DNA from: Thermoproteota archaeon
GTDB taxonomy: Archaea > Thermoproteota > Methanomethylicia > Methanomethylicales > Methanomethylicaceae
Direction: 5' to 3'
Length of the DNA: 64,000 nucleotides
Assembly: GCA_029887765.1 (NCBI GenBank)
Contig: JARXPF010000001.1
Span: forward strand, 488 to 64,487
Part shown: in pieces, positions 10,586-18,915 of the stretch
Numbering within the stretch: position 1 is the first letter of the stretch
Layout of the letters: each line of letters starts with the position of its first letter
Program-made: the position numbers and the translations under genes
Notes under the pieces: generated by a model
Told to the model about the DNA's origin: nothing
The model's database searches: none
Seen by the model: only the letters and a program-made list of their open reading frames with translations

Positions 10586-11377
10586 ATGTCATATAATGCA
10601 GATATAGGAATTATAGGAGGAAGTGGATTATACGATCCAGGATTATTTGAAAAAACAATTGAAATAAAAGTACATACTCCTTATGGATCGCCTTCAGATG
10701 TTTTAACTATAGGAGAATATAAAGGTATAAAAATAGCTTTTTTACCTAGACATGGAAAAAGACATTCCATTCCTCCACATTTAATAAATTATAGAGCAAA
10801 TATATGGGCAATGATGGATTTAGGTGTTAAAAGAATAATTGCTCCATCTGCAGTAGGAAGTTTAAAAGAAGAAATTAAGCCAGGAGATATTGTAATACCA
10901 GATCAATTCATAGATTTTACAAAAAAACGTGTATATTCTTTCTATGATGGTGCTGTAGTTGGACATTTTTCCTTAGCAGATCCTTTCTGTCCTGAATTAA
11001 ATAGTATATGTATAGAAACTGCAAAGAAATTAGGATTACAATGTCATTCTCCAGCTACTTATATATGTATAGAAGGACCAAGATTTTCTACAAGAGCAGA
11101 ATCAAGGTTATTTAAAAATTGGGGAGCAGATATTATAGGAATGACTTTAATTCCTGAAGTAATTTTAGCAAGAGAATGTGGAATATGTTATACTACTATT
11201 GCTACAGTTACAGATTATGATGTTTGGGCTGAAAAACCAGTAACTGCTGAAGAAGTATTAAATACTTTAAAGCAAAATGTTGAAAAAGTAAAAAAATTAT
11301 TAATGGAATTAATACCAAAAATTCCAAAAGAAAGAAAATGTCAATGTAAAAAATCATCTGAAGGAGCTTTAGTTTAA
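10586..11377 (+). CDS. mtnP: 5'-methylthioadenosine phosphorylase (PNP/MTAP family).
   Basis: 263 aa. Family signatures include [34 protein letters not shown] and [12 protein letters not shown]. Confidence 0.9.
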
Positions 11378-12751
11378 ATTATCAAATTTTTTTAATACTA
11401 ATCTTGTATTTGTACTCATTACACCTTTTATTATTCTTATACTTTCTAAAACTTCATTTAATTGTGTTATAGAATCTACACATATATGTGCTTCAATATC
11501 AAAATCACCACTAACTTCTAATACTTGTTTAATTCCCTTTACCCAAAGTAATCTTCTTGCGACTGCTGAAGTATATATATTAGATTGACATTTTATCATT
11601 ACTACTGCTTCTATTTTCTTTGGAATTTGTATTTCTAATTTCTTTCCAGTAATTCTTTCAGCAAGTTCAATTAAATCTACATCTCTATAACTTCTTATAT
11701 CTGGTCTATCTTTTATAGCTTGAAGTAGTTTCATTAATTCTTCTTCAGATAAACTAATTCCAAGTTTTCTTAATCTATCTTCTAATGCTGCTCTACCAGT
11801 ATATTTACTTATTACAATTTCTCTTTGTCTTCCAACAAGCTCAGGTGGAAAAGCTTCATATGTTCTAGGATCAAATATTACAGCTGCAGCATGAACGCCA
11901 CCTTTATGAGAAAATACATTATCACCTACTATAGGTTGAAGAGGAGATATTGGAATACCACTAAATTTCTCTACCATAGCTGAAAGTTCAGGAAGTTTAT
12001 CTAATTTTACTGTATCTATATCATATATAACTTTTAAAGCAACTGCAAAAGGTTCTAATGCTGTAATACCTGCTCTTTCTCCTAATCCATTTACTGTAGT
12101 ATGAACTGCAGTTGCTCCACCTTCTAAAGCTGCAATAGCATTAGCAACAGCCATTCCTAAATCATTATGACAATGTGCATCTAATTCAGCATTTTTAAGT
12201 TCTGAAGATAGTTTAAAGAATAATTCCTTAATTTTCATAGGAGTCATAAATCCTACAGTATCTGGTATACTTATTCTATCAGCTCCACTTTCTATAGCTG
12301 CTTTACATATTCTAATTAAGAAATTATAATCAGCTCTAGTAGCATCTTCAGCTGTAAATCTTACTTTTAATCCATGAGCTTTAGCATATTCTATACTTGA
12401 TACTGCAGTTTCAATAGCTTTTTCTTCATCCATTTTTAAAGATTTTAATTTTTCTTTTGTTACACCTAAAAATATAGCAACTCTATCTACATCACATTCA
12501 ATAGCAGCATCAATATCTGATTTTAAAGCTCTACTATGTGCTAAAATTTCTGCAGAAAGTTTTTCTAAAGAAATTTTCTTTACAGCATCATAGATATCTT
12601 TGGAAACTGCAGGATGACCTGCTTCTATCATATTAATTCCTATTTCATCAAGTTTTCTTGCAATTTGAATTTTTTCTTCTATTGTAAAAGATACTCCTGG
12701 AGTTTGTTCTCCTTCTCTTAATGTAGTATCTAATATTAGTACTTTTTTCAT
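11369..12751 (-). CDS. Homocitrate synthase / 2-isopropylmalate synthase family enzyme with a C-terminal regulatory domain (probably the homocitrate synthase of the AAA lysine pathway).
   Basis: 460 aa. Opens with [16 protein letters not shown] and carries the HxH metal site ([13 protein letters not shown]) of the DRE-TIM aldolase family. Confidence 0.8.
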
Positions 12752-12872: not shown

Positions 12873-15800
12873 ATGTTAAAAAATAAAAATATATCATATA
12901 TACATGTAGTAAAAAAAAGAGGGGTTAAAATTTTGGAAAATATTATAGGTAAAATTGAAGGTATAACAACAACAGAATCTTTCACAATGGTTTTAACAAA
13001 TTCTTGTATAGGAAAAGAAGATTATGTAGAAGTAGATTATGAAGGTAAAACTTATCTTTTAATTATAAAAGAAATTAAAAGAATTGGTGATAAACTTTTA
13101 GCAGATTGTATAGTAATAGGACAAACTCCTAAAACTCCTTTTCCATCAGGATTAGAAGTTAGAATTGCTTCAGAAGAAACTATAAGAAAAGGATTGGGAT
13201 TAACAACAACAGAAGCTGATGGTCTTTATATAGGAAAATTAAAATCAAGAGATTTAATGATATGGTTACCAGTAAAAAAACTTACAAGAATTTTTATTGT
13301 TGGTAAACCAGGATCTGGAAAATCTTATACAATGGGAGTAATTGCTGAAGAATTAATTAAAAAAGGAGTACCATTAGTAATAATAGATGCTCATGGAGAA
13401 TATTCAAGTTTAAAAGTACCTGCAGAATCTTATTCTGAAGAATTTAAAATAGAGCCAAAATCTTATTCTGAATATATTATAGAATTTGCTGATTTAACTT
13501 TTAATCCAGGTGCAGATATTGATATTTCTGCAATAGATAATTTAAAAATAGAAGACTTGGTATCTCAAATGCAATGTACTATAATAAATTTAAGAGGATT
13601 AGCAACTTCTGAACAATATTCTATTGTAGGAAAACTTTTGAATAGATTATTAGAAGCGATAATGATAATGCAAATACCTCCTTTTTATTTAGTATTAGAT
13701 GAAGCACATATATTTGCTGGAAGAAGTAAGCAAAAAGATCCATTAGTAAAAGAATGTTTAGATATTGTAAGAAGATTTGCTCAAGAAGGAAGAAAATTTG
13801 GAGCTAATTTAATAGTATTAACACAAAGACCTCAACTCTTAGATATGACTGTAAGAAGTCTTTCTGCTACTTGGATAATTCATCAACTTACTGATCCAAA
13901 TGATGTAAGAATAGCATTAGAAAGTGGAGGATTAAGTAAAGAGTGGAGTGAAAAAATTAATTGGCTTGAGCCTGGAGAAGCTATAATAACTGGAGATGTT
14001 GTTGAAAGAATACCATTACATATTAAAATAAGGAGAAGAGAAACAAGGCATGGTGCTCCTGGATTTAATCCATTAGATTTTGTTTCTCCAGAAGAGAAGG
14101 AGAAAATGAAGAAAAAACTAAGTTATTTAAAAACTCGTCAATTATATGTTATACAAGAAGGGCCTCCATCTCTTCCTTTACCTTCACTTTATTTACCAAT
14201 AAATATTGATGAAAAAATAATATTAGATAAATTAAAAGAAAATAGAACTTTTGATCATATTGAATTAATAAAATATAATTTAAAATATATGCCTGCATTA
14301 TTTGCAGAAGTTTCAGTAAATACTATGAGAAAAAATATTGAAATAAAAGATAGAATTAAAAGATTAATTCCAGTAGACTCTTCTATAACTACAATTGATT
14401 GGAGATATGAATCTGCTTATGGTTTAACTATAGATGATATTATAAATCCTTCACCTACTCTTCAAAGAGAAGGAAAACATCGTTCTCCATCTCCTTTAAT
14501 AATGGAGCCTTCAAGTATAGAAAATTTAAAAAATCTTTTGAAAAATTTTGCAATTTCAAAATTAACACAACAAGTATATTATCATAAAGAATTAAATGAA
14601 TATTCAAAATTAGGAGAATCAATTGAAGAATTTAAAAAGAGATTAAAAGAAAAATTAGAAATAATAAAGAAAAATAGAATTAATGAAGTTTCATTAACAT
14701 ATAATTCAAAAATAAAAGAAATAGAAAATTCAATAAAATCTATAAAAGATGAGTCTGAAAGTATAAAAAATCTTATTAATGAAATAGAAAGAGAACTTAA
14801 AGAACTTAAAAAAGAAAAAATAAAAGCTGAAAAAGAAGGAAGATCAACATTAAAAATATCAGAGCAAATTAAAACAAGAGAACTTAGAATTTCTAGACTT
14901 GAAAATAGATTATCTGAATTAAGTAGTAAAGTCATGGAATATAAAAAAGAAATGGAAATTTTAGAAGATAAAAAGAATGATGAAATTAAGAATATTACAA
15001 ATGAAATTGATAATATTATTAATTCACCTATACAAACCATGGTATTTCAACCAAGAATAGATGAAATTACAATAGAAGCAATGCATGTAATATGGATACC
15101 AATATTTGAAGCTATGTATAAAGCATACTTTAATGGTTTTAAAAAAGATTTAAAATTTGAATGGAATGGTGTAAATGGTAAAGGAATTTTTGGTAATTGT
15201 TCAGAATGTGGAATTACAATAAATCAATTACCTGATCAATTTATATGTTATAAATGTGGTGAAGTTTATTGTCAAGAACATTTAGTTTTATGTAATGAAT
15301 GTCAAAGAGGAATTTGTAATGAACATAAAAGAATTTGTCCAAATTGTGGAAAAATATATTGTATAGATGAAAAAACGTACATATGTACTAATTGTGGTAA
15401 AGAATTATGTATTAATTGTGTATTAAGATGTAGTGAATGTAAAGAAGTTTATTGTATAGAACATGTAAAAGAATGTAAAGTTTGTAATTCTAAATTATGT
15501 ATAAATCATTATAATGAACATGTAAAAGAATGTTCTAATTGTAAAAAACCATTATGTATACTTGAACAATTATTTTGTAAAATATGTAATAAAATATTAT
15601 GTAAAGATTGTGCAATTAAATGTTCAGAATGTGAAAATTATGTTTGTAATAAGCATATATGGTATTGTTCAGCATGTAGTAGAGCATTATGTATAAATGA
15701 AGATCGCTATGAATGTATTTCATGTAAAAAACCTCTATGTAGATTATGTGTAGCAACTTGTCAATTATGTGGAAATAACTTATGTAGACTTCATATCTAT

Positions 15801-15905
15801 ACTTGTCCAAATTGTGGAAGAGAAATTTGTCCCATGTGTATTATTGAAAAGAAGAAATTTGGAATATTTAAGAAAAATGTATGTAAAATATGTGCTCTTA
15901 AATAG
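12873..15905 (+). CDS. Large multidomain protein: an N-terminal HerA/FtsK-like P-loop ATPase (DUF87), a ~170-aa coiled coil, and a C-terminal ~235-aa array of about 13 tandem Cys-rich zinc-knuckle repeats.
   Basis: 1010 aa. Walker A is GKPGSGKS, Walker B is LVLDEAHIF, and the sensor/Arg-finger region is LTQRPQ. Residues ~560-720 are Lys/Glu-rich heptad sequence. Residues ~770-1005 repeat the unit C-x2-C-x4-(Y/L/I)C-x2-(H/C/E)-x3 about 13 times. Confidence 0.8.
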   Translation: MLKNKNISYIHVVKKRGVKILENIIGKIEGITTTESFTMVLTNSCIGKEDYVEVDYEGKTYLLIIKEIKRIGDKLLADCIVIGQTPKTPFPSGLEVRIASEETIRKGLGLTTTEADGLYIGKLKSRDLMIWLPVKKLTRIFIVGKPGSGKSYTMGVIAEELIKKGVPLVIIDAHGEYSSLKVPAESYSEEFKIEPKSYSEYIIEFADLTFNPGADIDISAIDNLKIEDLVSQMQCTIINLRGLATSEQYSIVGKLLNRLLEAIMIMQIPPFYLVLDEAHIFAGRSKQKDPLVKECLDIVRRFAQEGRKFGANLIVLTQRPQLLDMTVRSLSATWIIHQLTDPNDVRIALESGGLSKEWSEKINWLEPGEAIITGDVVERIPLHIKIRRRETRHGAPGFNPLDFVSPEEKEKMKKKLSYLKTRQLYVIQEGPPSLPLPSLYLPINIDEKIILDKLKENRTFDHIELIKYNLKYMPALFAEVSVNTMRKNIEIKDRIKRLIPVDSSITTIDWRYESAYGLTIDDIINPSPTLQREGKHRSPSPLIMEPSSIENLKNLLKNFAISKLTQQVYYHKELNEYSKLGESIEEFKKRLKEKLEIIKKNRINEVSLTYNSKIKEIENSIKSIKDESESIKNLINEIERELKELKKEKIKAEKEGRSTLKISEQIKTRELRISRLENRLSELSSKVMEYKKEMEILEDKKNDEIKNITNEIDNIINSPIQTMVFQPRIDEITIEAMHVIWIPIFEAMYKAYFNGFKKDLKFEWNGVNGKGIFGNCSECGITINQLPDQFICYKCGEVYCQEHLVLCNECQRGICNEHKRICPNCGKIYCIDEKTYICTNCGKELCINCVLRCSECKEVYCIEHVKECKVCNSKLCINHYNEHVKECSNCKKPLCILEQLFCKICNKILCKDCAIKCSECENYVCNKHIWYCSACSRALCINEDRYECISCKKPLCRLCVATCQLCGNNLCRLHIYTCPNCGREICPMCIIEKKKFGIFKKNVCKICALK

Positions 15906-16419
15906 TTTTTATAAAAGCTCTAAATAGCCATGGAAGCATTAAAAATGAAGATAATATTTCTGGTATAGCAACACCTTTAAATAAAAATCCTTGAAAATGT
16001 AATATCCATATTGGAATTTCTAATAATACAATTAAGGAGAGATAGCATTTTTCTTCAATAAAATAAGCTATAGATGAAAATAACAGAGATGAGAATAATA
16101 GAATTGAAACATAGAAATGAATTATACCATAATTTTCACAAAAAAGAGCTACTAATTGTAAACAAATTCCATTAAAAATTAAAAAATAAGAAGTCTTTGG
16201 TGCATGATATGCTAATGCTTTAATAGAATAGAAAATAATTAATAAACCAGATATTAATAATCCAAAATTAAATATTGGAGCACTACTATGATTTAAATTT
16301 CCTAAATCACTTAAAGCATTTTCTACCCATTTAAACCAAGGAGAAATACTTATGGAAATAAAAATAGAAGAATAAAGTACAATTATAGCAAGAATACCAT
16401 ATATTGCATTTTTATTCAT
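15898..16419 (-). CDS. Hypothetical membrane protein.
   Basis: 173 aa with 4-5 TM helices. Confidence 0.4.
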   Translation of the reverse strand: MNKNAIYGILAIIVLYSSIFISISISPWFKWVENALSDLGNLNHSSAPIFNFGLLISGLLIIFYSIKALAYHAPKTSYFLIFNGICLQLVALFCENYGIIHFYVSILLFSSLLFSSIAYFIEEKCYLSLIVLLEIPIWILHFQGFLFKGVAIPEILSSFLMLPWLFRAFIKTI

Positions 16420-16906: not shown

Positions 16907-17560
16907 ATGAGTGAGTATATTCTTAATGAATTAGCAGAAGCTGTAATATTAGGTGATGAAGAAAAAGCAAAAAATGTTGCAAAAAAAGCTATTGAAATAG
17001 GAATAGATCCATTAATAGCAATAAATGATGGATTAATGAAAGGAATGCGACAGATAAGTGAAGATTTCAGTAATCTAAAAGTATATTTACCAGAAGTAAT
17101 GTTAGCAGCAGAAGCAATGAAAGCAGCTCTTTCTATACTTGAACCAAAAATATTAGAAAAAAAATTAACAGAAGAAAAAAGAAAAGTTGTTATTGGAACA
17201 ATTCAAGGAGATATTCATGATATAGGAAAGAATATTGTAGCTCTTTTACTTAAAGCAAATGGATTTGAAGTTTATGATTTAGGAAGAGATGTACCTGTAG
17301 ATGAATTTATTAAAAAAGCAGAAGAAGTAAAAGCAGATATTATAGCAGCATCAACACTTTTATCAACATCAATGCCATACATGGAGGATTTAATAAAAAT
17401 GTTAAATGAAAGAAATCTAAGAGATAAATACATAGTAATGGTAGGTGGTGGACCTGTAACAAGAGAATGGGCAAAAAGTATAGGAGCAGATGGTTATGGA
17501 GAAGATGGAGAAGAAGCTGTAAAAGTAGCAAAGGAATTGATAAAGGTGAAAAATAAATGA
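16907..17560 (+). CDS. Cobalamin-binding corrinoid protein, MtmC-like (methyltransferase-cognate corrinoid protein with B12-binding cap and Rossmann domains).
   Basis: 217 aa, the same length as MtmC. Carries the DxHxxG motif (GTIQGDIHDIGKNIV) and MVGGGPVT...GADGYGED, close to Methanosarcina MtmC. Confidence 0.85.
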   Translation: MSEYILNELAEAVILGDEEKAKNVAKKAIEIGIDPLIAINDGLMKGMRQISEDFSNLKVYLPEVMLAAEAMKAALSILEPKILEKKLTEEKRKVVIGTIQGDIHDIGKNIVALLLKANGFEVYDLGRDVPVDEFIKKAEEVKADIIAASTLLSTSMPYMEDLIKMLNERNLRDKYIVMVGGGPVTREWAKSIGADGYGEDGEEAVKVAKELIKVKNK

Positions 17561-18915
17561 TAAGTATTTGGGAAGTTTTAGATAGAGCAGAAACAGGACA
17601 ATATATGGAAGAAAGAGATTTTGATATTAAAATTGTAGCTAAAAAATGTAGAGAATTAGTAAAAGAATATGATATAAAATTTAATCCTAATGAAATTATT
17701 ACAACTGATGATTCAATGGCTGATGATGTATTTGAAGCTGGTTTTAAATTAGCTCTTGAGACTGGTATTTATTGTATAAATACAAAACGTATAATAAAAT
17801 TTGATGAAAGTGAAATAAAAGAAGGTATTGAAACTGCTCCTCATGAAATTATAGTAGGAGAAGGAAGAGATGCTAGGATTCTTTATGCAAGAGGAATAGA
17901 AGATAGAAGAAGACCAATAATATGTGGAGGACAAGCTGGTGCTACAATACCTGAAGAATGGTATGTACCAATGGCCATGTCTTATATGAAAGAACCCTTA
18001 ATTGATATGATAAATCATGGAGGAATTGCTATTGTTGAAGGAAGAAAAGTTAGAACTCATTCTCCTCTTGAAATTCAAGCTACAAGAAGAGAACTTTCAA
18101 TGTTAAAAGAAGCAGCAGCAAGATCAGGAAGACCTGGAATAGGGCTTATTGCAGGAGAAAGTAGTGTATCTGTATTAGGTGATTTAGCTATTGCTTCTGA
18201 AAAATATATGAAAACTTGTGATTCTCATTTAGTTGCTCTACTTAATGAACTTAAAACTGATTATGATAGACTTTCTAAAGCAGTTAATTTTACTGAATAT
18301 GGAGCTTATAATGTAACATTAGTAGATCCTATTATTGGAGGATATGCTGGAGGTCCTGAAGGTGTAGCTATATGTTTTATTGCTTCATTTCTACTTGGAA
18401 GACTTCTCTATAAATCAGAATATCATGTATGTCATCCTATACATTTTCGCTATGTTAGTACTAGTGCAATAGAATGCTTATGGAATTTAAATATAGTAGG
18501 TCAAGCAATGGCAAGAAATGCAAAATTCATAATAATGGGAGATGTTTGGACATCAGCAGGTGCTGGAAGTGAAATGATATTTTATGAAATTACTGCTAAT
18601 ACTATAACTAATGTAGTAACTGGAACTCATCCATTAGGAGTCTCAGCTACTAATGGAAAATATCCACATGCTTCAGGATTAGAAACAAAATTTATGGCAG
18701 AAGTAGCAATTGCTGCAACTAAATTAAATAGAAGTAATGCAAATGAAATTGTTACAAAACTTTCAAAAGAATATAAAGATAAAATGAATAATCCTGATAT
18801 AGGTAAGCCTTTTCCTGAATTATATGATATAAGAAAAGTTATACCAAATCCTGAATGGATGGCATTATATAAAGAAATGAAAAAGAAAATTGGTGATATC
18901 ACTGGATTATGGTGA
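17557..18915 (+). CDS. MtmB-family (monomethylamine methyltransferase-like) protein, paralog 1. It has no in-frame amber codon and Ile at the position of MtmB pyrrolysine.
   Basis: 452 aa. Blocks alignable with Methanosarcina MtmB: FEAGFKLALETGIYCINTKRIIKFDESEI; PIICGGQAGATIPEEWYVPMAMSY; SGRPGIGL; DPIIGGYAGGPEG; GKPFPELYDIRKVIPNPEWM. Confidence 0.8.
   Translation: MISIWEVLDRAETGQYMEERDFDIKIVAKKCRELVKEYDIKFNPNEIITTDDSMADDVFEAGFKLALETGIYCINTKRIIKFDESEIKEGIETAPHEIIVGEGRDARILYARGIEDRRRPIICGGQAGATIPEEWYVPMAMSYMKEPLIDMINHGGIAIVEGRKVRTHSPLEIQATRRELSMLKEAAARSGRPGIGLIAGESSVSVLGDLAIASEKYMKTCDSHLVALLNELKTDYDRLSKAVNFTEYGAYNVTLVDPIIGGYAGGPEGVAICFIASFLLGRLLYKSEYHVCHPIHFRYVSTSAIECLWNLNIVGQAMARNAKFIIMGDVWTSAGAGSEMIFYEITANTITNVVTGTHPLGVSATNGKYPHASGLETKFMAEVAIAATKLNRSNANEIVTKLSKEYKDKMNNPDIGKPFPELYDIRKVIPNPEWMALYKEMKKKIGDITGLW
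17641..17751 (+). repeat. 111-nt tract 100% identical to 19005-19115, located within the 5' ends of the two mtmB-like paralogs.
   Basis: Direct comparison of the two nucleotide stretches. The flanking sequence is diverged. Confidence 0.9.

Follow-up and report, generated by a model that had tools for sequence, protein, structure and literature searches.

A tandem Cys-rich array on an archaeal HerA-type ATPase, a candidate chain of serially cross-braced zinc sites

The window analysed here is a stretch of 64,000 nucleotides (nt) from a Thermoproteota archaeon (GTDB lineage Methanomethylicia; Methanomethylicales; Methanomethylicaceae), corresponding to positions 488–64,487 of the forward strand of contig JARXPF010000001.1 in assembly GCA_029887765.1. 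It contains a gene for a protein of 1010 amino acids (aa), in which a HerA-type ATPase precedes a β-rich 'mid' domain, two long helices, a β-hairpin junction and a Cys-rich C-terminal array, which is the subject of this study (Table 1). One homologue, a protein of a Ca. Methanomethylicaceae metagenome-assembled genome (MAG), is identical across 98% of its length, and about 95 full-length homologues were found. AlphaFold2 predicts the full-length protein with a mean predicted local distance difference test score (pLDDT) of 86.8, and the array part with about 90.

Table 1. Features of the 1010-residue protein and of the adjacent genes (positions are those of the window), with the metal sites predicted for the array
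Feature	Nucleotides	Strand	Residues	Basis or detail
Whole gene	12873–15905	+		Open reading frame; 1010-aa HerA-type ATPase, mid domain, coiled coil, putative zinc array
N-terminal β-barrel, HAS-barrel-like	12942–13166	+	24–98	Model strands; inside Foldseek match to Sulfolobus HerA 4d2i
RecA-like ATPase core	13221–14072	+	117–400	Pfam DUF87; invariant motifs; PDB HerA matches by sequence and fold
Walker A, GKPGSGKS	13302–13325	+	144–151
Walker B, LVLDEAH	13689–13709	+	273–279
β-rich 'mid' domain	14184–14585	+	438–571	AlphaFold2 secondary structure
Two long helices	14622–15020	+	584–655 and 660–716	Model
β-hairpin junction into array	15033–15197	+	721–775	Invariant W741, P743, W764, N765 ('WNG' motif)
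N-cap, lone C776-x2-C779 and 12-residue spacer	15198–15245	+		No second half-site; both Cys invariant
Thirteen full units	15246–15881	+	792–1003	C-x2-C knuckle 'a', then C-x2-(H/C/E) half-site 'b'
First half-array, u1–u7	15198–15530	+	776–886	Lag-110 self-similarity; extra invariant His883 in 7-residue helix
Second half-array, u8–u14 and C-cap	15531–15902	+	887–1010	Fourth ligand position of u8 not conserved
C-cap, basic β-hairpin, then C1004-x2-C1007 into terminal helix	15840–15902	+	990–1004 (hairpin)	Both Cys invariant
Predicted site S1			C776, C779, C800, H803
Predicted site S2			C792, C795, C815, H818
Predicted site S3			C807, C810, C830, E833
Predicted site S4			C822, C825, C846, C849
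Predicted site S5			C838, C841, C861, H864
Predicted site S6			C853, C856, C876, H879
Predicted site S7			C868, C871, C895, probably H883
Predicted site S8			C887, C890, C910, C913
Predicted site S9			C902, C905, C925, H928
Predicted site S10			C917, C920, C940, E943
Predicted site S11			C932, C935, C956, C959
Predicted site S12			C948, C951, C971, H974
Predicted site S13			C963, C966, C986, C989
Predicted site S14			C978, C981, C1004, C1007
Homocitrate/isopropylmalate-synthase-like gene	11369–12751	-		Divergent, upstream; HMGL-like and HCS_D2 domains, C-terminal Lrp/AsnC ligand-binding domain
DUF998 membrane-protein gene	15898–16419	-		Convergent
Corrinoid (B12-binding) protein gene	16907–17560
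MtmB monomethylamine methyltransferase gene	17557–18915			Pfam profile 1–448 of 450

Forty-seven of the 51 cysteines of the protein fall within residues 776–1010 (nt 15198–15902), and these 235 residues are made up of an N-cap knuckle, 13 full units and a C-cap half unit. Each full unit has the form C-x2-C-x4-C-x2-(H/C/E)-x3, and the starts are at residues 792, 807, 822, 838, 853, 868, 887, 902, 917, 932, 948, 963 and 978. Position 4 of the unit is G, K or N, position 7 is L, Y, I or V, and position 11 is H in six units, C in four and E in three. The motif is counted 13 times in the array. In 2000 shuffles of the array residues it came up 0.57 times on average and never more than 5 times, and outside the array it was absent from all six frames of the window.

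The array had been noticed in an earlier examination of the letters of this DNA (the sequence-only reading), which described about 13 near-perfect tandem copies with a 15-residue period, beginning at position 15170. The 13 full units and the near-perfect register of the ligands stand, but identity between units is 32% overall and only 14% over the 11 non-ligand positions. The period is exactly 15 residues in nine units, but 16 residues are counted in u4 and u11, each of which has Glu in the fourth ligand place, 19 in u7 and 26 in u14, and the start of the array has to be moved to nt 15198. The consensus proposed at that time, C-x2-C-(G/N/K)-x3-(Y/L/I)-C-x2-(H/C/E)-x3, holds apart from the V at position 7, and the divergence of the repeats in DNA agrees with the result of Tandem Repeats Finder, which detected no period-45 tandem repeat. 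The cysteines fall most strongly into register, 79% of them, on a shift of 110 aa, which brings u1–u7 into correspondence with u8–u14; the two halves are 34% identical, and the register reflects an old duplication of a seven-unit block.

Conservation was examined in an alignment of 80 homologues (37–80% identity) from Methanomethylicia, Nezhaarchaeales and Bathyarchaeia. All of the array cysteines are invariant or nearly so, and swaps at the fourth ligand position are limited to His, Cys and Asp, a restriction that resembles the pattern of metal ligands. E833 and E943 are nearly invariant; the exception is u8, in which the fourth position is not conserved. Both H879 and H883 are invariant, and H883 probably stands in for the missing fourth ligand of u8. 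The sequence-only reading had assigned four metal ligands to each repeat and had named non-conservation of the cysteines as the outcome that would tell against it; the cysteines turn out to be conserved. It had also called for a structure prediction of the C-terminal region, and this proved to be confident and ordered: AlphaFold2, run without metal on the array alone (model meee9e3c29599), gave a pLDDT of 92.9 (approximately 90–98 across the units) and a predicted template-modelling score (pTM) of 0.69. In the model a two-residue strand lies ahead of each half-site, a helical turn is present at seven of the 13 'b' sites, and the final Cys pair is located where a long β-hairpin enters the terminal helix (DSSP: strands 990–995 and 999–1004, helix 1005–1009). 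The 28 half-sites run unbroken over the 235 residues, with no domain boundary. Conservation of this kind strongly supports residues 776–1010 as a structural metal-binding array, whose 28 half-sites would be enough for 14 tetrahedral sites, and the metal is most probably zinc.

Four ways of pairing the half-sites were compared, namely a(i)+b(i); b(i)+a(i+1); a(i)+a(i+1) with b(i)+b(i+1) (staggered); and a(i)+b(i+1). The lone caps are accounted for by every pairing except the first. A profile of the array (alignment A3) retrieves hundreds of distant arrays, many of them with degenerate units, and joint loss of half-sites was counted in 1699 units parsed from 129 distant relatives. Loss of b(i+1) accompanies that of a(i) in 119 cases distributed over 52 proteins (odds ratio 14, Fisher p = 7e-55), and, protein by protein, a(i)+b(i+1) is preferred over b(i)+a(i+1) in 48 and the reverse is seen in one (p = 2e-13). 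The odds ratios of 1.0 for a(i)/a(i+1) and 0.5 for b(i)/b(i+1) led us to reject the staggered pairing, which would give a zinc-ribbon ladder, and that of 0.7 for b(i)/a(i+1) a sequential pairing such as that of LIM-type fingers. Within-unit pairing a(i)/b(i) shows a weak association (odds ratio 2.3) and would leave the caps to pair with each other across arrays of variable length. Because whole sites have been lost as a(i)+b(i+1) in the relatives, each zinc probably bridges neighbouring units, one half-site, the knuckle, coming from unit i and the other, C-x2-H, from unit i+1. The interleaving of sites suggested by the sequence-only reading is therefore supported by the co-loss data.

In such an arrangement, two neighbouring units would provide the ligands of a metal, unit i through its C-x2-C knuckle and unit i+1 through its C-x2-(H/C/D/E) half-site in a helical turn, and each of the 14 predicted sites would comprise three Cys and one H, C or E. 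A lone knuckle at the N-cap and a lone C-x2-C at the start of the C-cap helix are exactly what this pairing would demand. The array would be a serially cross-braced chain of treble-clef fingers, with each 15-residue unit stapled to the next, and since no hinge would be left between units, the resulting rod would be rigid and have a zinc for every 15 residues. Together with the preceding coiled coil and β-hairpin, the rod could constitute a portable accessory module of DNA motors, most likely acting as a stiff arm, or as a scaffold for interactions, by which the HerA motor is placed in relation to a partner or substrate. We favour this account, a cross-braced a(i)+b(i+1) zinc rod serving a DNA motor as a stiff arm or scaffold, and regard it on balance as fairly probable.

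Several observations tell against this account and are set out together here. Glu is unusual as a fourth ligand, yet it is required in two of the predicted sites; S7 needs His883 to be recruited from outside the regular register; and some Bathyarchaeia homologues are without b13 while its predicted partner a12 is intact. The co-loss set consists of relatives that are mostly SNF2-associated and do not belong to the window family, the counts depend on our own parsing of degenerate units, and repeats inside one protein are not independent of each other. AlphaFold2 models the chain without metal, and the proposed grouping of the ligands derives from sequence, not from coordinates. As to function, the assignment is one of guilt by association, and no partner gene is conserved across 51 loci beyond the local synteny within Methanomethylicia, so that the contact of the arm is not indicated.

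The array is probably neither an enzyme nor a classical sequence-reading DNA-binding domain. That it binds nucleic acid directly and 'in register', with one unit for a fixed number of base pairs, and thereby loads or guides the HerA motor, appears unlikely to us. The sequence-only reading had put such binding forward first, beside a possible part in oligomerisation. The array is repeatedly fused or operon-linked to DNA motors and nucleases, the arrays of the window family are mildly basic (mean K+R-D-E of +7, and +10 in the window protein), five of the knuckles have a conserved K or R at position 5, and the C-cap hairpin is basic, with conserved K/R at residues 994, 995, 1000, 1001 and 1005. 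However, net charges of -14, -20 and -93 in the relatives disfavour nucleic-acid binding as a general property, Cys-thiolate zinc sites would add further negative charge, non-ligand residues are barely conserved between units, and no DNA-binding zinc-finger family was matched. The scaffold is preferred to direct reading of DNA because the arrays of relatives are strongly acidic and the surface is barely conserved from unit to unit. A nucleic-acid or membrane contact at the tip of the rod is possible, given the mildly basic array and the C-cap lysines.

Zinc-thiolate switches are known, for example Hsp33. The array might similarly be a redox or metal sensor, in which oxidation of its 47 thiolates frees zinc, unfolds the rod and switches the ATPase, or else a rubredoxin-like chain of iron sites for electron transfer. 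Cys is very dense in the array, the organism is a strict anaerobe whose methanogen context includes MtmB and corrinoid-protein genes next door, and four all-Cys sites are predicted; these points are in keeping with such a role, but we consider it highly improbable. In most of the sites the fourth ligand is H, D or E, with free interchange among them, which is typical of structural zinc and not of rubredoxin iron or iron–sulphur clusters; ferredoxin or radical S-adenosylmethionine spacing is absent; and the array occurs in high-GC relatives too, and is thus not confined to the low-GC methanogen lineage.

Comparison with known zinc folds gave no family for the array. No Pfam or NCBIfam model reached its threshold on it, in the window protein or in relatives, and no significant match was obtained in the PDB by sequence, profile or fold. 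The weak matches include zf-AN1 (14.2 bits against a cut-off of 27.9), an AN1-like match of the segment a1-a2-b2 at the start of the array, MID1 B-box1 (E = 0.005) and FYVE domains (E = 0.002–0.05) among PDB profiles, and the rabphilin structure 1zbd_B in Foldseek (48 aligned columns, root-mean-square deviation 3.0 Å); zf-B_box gave no match. A zinc ribbon is not indicated, Zn_ribbon_3 scoring 16 bits against 27 and the a(i)/a(i+1) co-loss being at chance. In binuclear cross-braced treble clefs (RING-like, AN1 and FYVE), the second zinc has its first half-site in the turn of the primary hairpin and the half-sites alternate, according to PMC4999995.

The spacing of the array, C-x2-C-x11-C-x2-C-x4-C-x2-(C/H), fits the C-x2-C-x(9-12)-C-x(1-2)-C-x4-C-x2-(C/H) of AN1, B-box1 and FYVE, and the a(i)-x11-a(i+1)-x4-b(i+1) spacing holds in every unit. 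Half-sites 1 and 3 share a zinc in those domains, as they would in the array by co-loss, and B-box2 can have Asp as a ligand, comparable to the Glu or Asp of the array. In contrast, AN1, B-box1 and FYVE are discrete two-zinc domains of 40–70 aa, whereas the array would iterate the cross-brace 14 times in unbroken succession (its relatives have from 5 to more than 25 units), each unit being at once the 'hairpin turn' of one site and the 'knuckle' of the next. Tandem LIM domains (PINCH LIM4-5, LMO2/LMO4) gave the best PDB matches in Foldseek (E = 3e-3 to 0.1), but with template-modelling (TM) scores of only 0.14–0.35. They too are rod-like strings of zinc modules that serve as protein-interaction scaffolds, with half-sites 2–4 residues apart belonging to different zincs; however, LIM fingers are sequential and non-overlapping, require about 55 aa per two zincs and are eukaryotic, whereas the array appears interleaved by co-loss. 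The CHY region of Pirh2/RCHY1 (2dkt; Foldseek E = 7e-3) is β-rich with consecutive zinc sites and close Cys pairs, but it has fewer sites and other spacing, and the match is non-significant (TM 0.12–0.17). Thus, the array is best filed as an open-ended serially cross-braced treble-clef chain covered by no family model. It is undescribed in those parts of the literature that were searched, a coverage that did not extend to the article by Burroughs, Iyer and Aravind (2011) about the binuclear treble clefs of prokaryotes, which might mention relatives. A search of BFVD with the array model also listed uncharacterised giant-virus proteins (Edafosvirus, Bodo saltans virus PARP and WWE proteins, Hyperionvirus, Klosneuvirus; E = 3e-11 to 1e-4, low TM), which may hold analogous poly-zinc strings.

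The array had been called unusual, and it is so in lacking a Pfam, NCBIfam or PDB family, but it is not rare. A profile search with A3 over 1.84 billion representatives returned, in clusters at 50% identity, 770 proteins at E <= 1e-3 and 260 at E <= 1e-10. The architectures of the top 143 array proteins outside the window family were surveyed. Seventy-four, without a Pfam match, are alike in having an N-terminal domain, a coiled coil, the array and a small domain at the C terminus; 32 have the same W-N-G junction as the window protein, placed after other HerA-like ATPases or a weak Mrr-like (Mrr_cat) nuclease domain; and there are 10 direct SNF2-helicase fusions, four fusions to an E2 domain (UQ_con) and two to a DUF559 endonuclease and UvrD helicase. 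In all five contigs with enough context, a gene of the 74-member group begins 1–10 nt after an SNF2 gene or overlaps it, and Mrr_cat, PLDc_2, SF1 helicase, GAP1-N2, DO-GTPase and WYL genes are among the neighbours of these SNF2 and array pairs.

In the window protein, the array is preceded by the two helices 584–655 and 660–716, which by our own interpretation of the model would pack as an antiparallel coiled-coil hairpin of roughly 100 Å; this region has weak SMC/Rad50-like coiled-coil matches. The end of the coiled coil, the β-hairpin and the first knuckle are homologous between the SNF2-associated group and the window family according to hhalign (probability 96.5%, E = 7e-10), and therefore the coiled coil, hairpin and zinc rod would together make one portable module, which appears from these sequences to have been attached repeatedly in evolution to DNA motors and nucleases. 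BLASTP of the mid region against the SNF2-associated proteins found nothing, and a Pfam scan of the mid domain (residues 438–571) was without a match. The pairing of SNF2 genes with array genes parallels CDCA7–HELLS, in which a Cys-rich zf-4CXXC_R1 accessory protein recruits an SNF2 ATPase (PMC11343034 and 10.1101/2023.12.19.572350), but CDCA7 is a single domain and not an array and has no sequence or fold kinship to it, so that the analogy is functional only.

Some of the relatives have individual features of their own. In the SNF2-associated protein P0121 (L007, 6001–8658), a 30-aa block of two units (CNSCKKQFCQTDRTR CAECDLEFCRNDAGE) is present in 11 identical copies, a recent expansion by two units per step. 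The numbers of full units in W-N-G-type arrays cluster at 5, 9, 13 and 17, in steps of four (about 61 aa) that may correspond to a four-unit structural super-period. The first twelve arrays, with 5, 9, 13 and 17 units, had suggested, in connection with the staggered pairing, a rule that the number is odd or 1 mod 4; it is broken by P0211 and P0176, rare arrays with 6 units and the same caps. RING/B-box-type fingers, which the array resembles, partner E2 enzymes in eukaryotes, and P0155 and three relatives have the array fused to E2 (UQ_con, 41.9 bits), with an apparent hydrophobic membrane segment at the end, as judged by eye. At L008 (3111–5918) and L092 (4273–6999) the SNF2 gene immediately upstream of the array gene is fused to an N-terminal Ser/Thr kinase and is located in a neighbourhood of the conflict-system kind, with GAP1-N2, DO-GTPase, TCAD9 and WYL genes next to it.

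The ATPase itself is readily recognized. Residues 24–400 are an intact HerA-fold ATPase: Pfam PF01935 (DUF87) scores 61.8 bits over residues 119–211, above its curated threshold of 23.2, and phmmer matches PDB HerA sequences at E = 1e-20. Foldseek aligns the barrel and RecA-like core with Sulfolobus HerA (4d2i_B; E = 8.4e-25, TM normalised to the target 0.61). Walker A and B are intact, and K150, S151, D276 and E277 are invariant among the 80 homologues; a TQRPQ motif is present at residue 317 of the core. It is presumably a hexameric ring, by analogy with solved HerA proteins. The N-terminal barrel, RecA-like core and Walker motifs are shared with archaeal HerA (Sulfolobus 4d2i; Thermococcus HerA–NurA 9x1m) and with defence HerA (SIR2–HerA, DUF4297–HerA), but the window protein differs from all these solved proteins in its extra 600-residue C-terminal extension of mid domain, coiled coil and predicted zinc rod. 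It is not the canonical DNA-repair HerA, because the repair equivalogs score about one-tenth of their cut-offs (NF040937, 96.1 bits against 800; NF040819, 75.6 against 970) and no NurA, Mre11 or Rad50 gene is found among its neighbours, nor is there one for SIR2 or DUF4297. A closely related ATPase of Asgard archaea (46–53% identity across 400 aa) has only a short coiled-coil tail and no array. The possibility that the gene is split there, into a 570–600-aa HerA-like protein and a separate array gene, was rejected in that no Cys-rich open reading frame lies nearby. In Lokiarchaeum ossiferum (L004, 7781–9819) the array-less ATPase gene is followed by genes for a 236-aa protein without a Pfam match and for a Metallophos (Mre11-like) protein, which hints at a DNA-repair-type context for the array-less version.

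In a scan of one genome per GTDB species, the full-length architecture is found in about 50 species of Methanomethylicia (including Methanosuratincola complete genomes and Culexarchaeia), Nezhaarchaeales and Bathyarchaeia, and phmmer with the array as query recovers the window family with E down to 1e-119. The number of units is 13 in 79 of the 94 parsed sequences of the family. The genes around the array gene in the window encode a homocitrate-synthase-like enzyme, methylthioadenosine (MTA) phosphorylase, DUF998, Alba, a corrinoid protein and MtmB; of the 51 loci, 24 keep the homocitrate-synthase-like gene in synteny, 17 keep Alba and 16 MTA phosphorylase, all in close relatives only. The HerA-array gene has the appearance of a stand-alone gene passed on vertically, not of a mobile defence cassette.

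These data bear on a further alternative, in which the protein is part of an anti-phage or anti-plasmid defence and the zinc rod, with its variable surface, senses an invader protein or DNA. The defence-island-like surroundings of the relatives, the recent expansion of units in P0121 and the activity of HerA ATPases in the SIR2–HerA and DUF4297–HerA systems (from PDB titles) speak for it. In the window family, however, the gene stands alone among housekeeping genes, with synteny within Methanomethylicia only and no effector gene nearby; its presence in about 50 species of three archaeal classes with a near-constant number of units resembles the vertical inheritance of a core gene; and PADLOC-DB yields matches to generic HerA and coiled-coil models only, with no defence partner genes near the window gene. 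A defence role is clear for many relatives and less likely for the window family, for which we judge this alternative to be quite improbable.

A stiff arm or scaffold built as a cross-braced zinc rod therefore remains our preferred reading, and a wider proposal may be attached to it tentatively, as one that we find possible rather than probable: that the array is an unclassified polynuclear zinc fold, a rigid arm of tunable length on DNA motors, which defines both an uncharacterised two-gene cassette of SNF2 and zinc rod, typical of conflict islands, and a vertically inherited HerA–zinc-rod machine of Methanomethylicia, Nezhaarchaeales and Bathyarchaeia, the latter possibly a lineage-specific genome-maintenance factor. 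The known classes of zinc fingers are mono- or binuclear treble clefs and tandem arrays of separate fingers. If the present reading is true, an uninterrupted zinc-sharing chain would be a new way to build a stiff rod from little sequence. That the array has been joined again and again to HerA, SNF2 and UvrD motors and to nucleases points to an accessory principle of DNA translocases that has gone unrecognised, the SNF2 and array pairs would be a candidate SNF2-based conflict system, and the HerA-array gene would represent a conserved HerA paralogue in methyl-reducing methanogens and Bathyarchaeia. Since the array occurs in hundreds of clusters, a model made from alignment A3 would annotate many 'hypothetical' proteins.

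Some minor features of the locus and of one homologue are also worth recording. In 24 loci of Methanomethylicia, the divergent upstream gene, an enzyme–Lrp/AsnC fusion, keeps its synteny with the HerA-array gene. The convergent DUF998 gene overlaps the final 8 nt of the HerA-array gene, including the stop codon, so that the two share their 3' ends. The corrinoid-protein gene overlaps the start of the MtmB gene by 4 nt. An in-frame amber codon marks pyrrolysine in Methanosarcina MtmB; the MtmB reading frame of the window is uninterrupted and has no in-frame amber codon. In the homologue P0048, an Arg/Ala-rich stretch of about 35 aa (SSARRASPIRAQYAERRLRRLCWDASTAAARATARS) takes the place of u4–u6 and looks like a frameshift or an assembly error in the MAG. 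The G+C content of the window is very low, 21–33% in 2-kb windows, and is lowest in the first 6 kb (approximately 21%).

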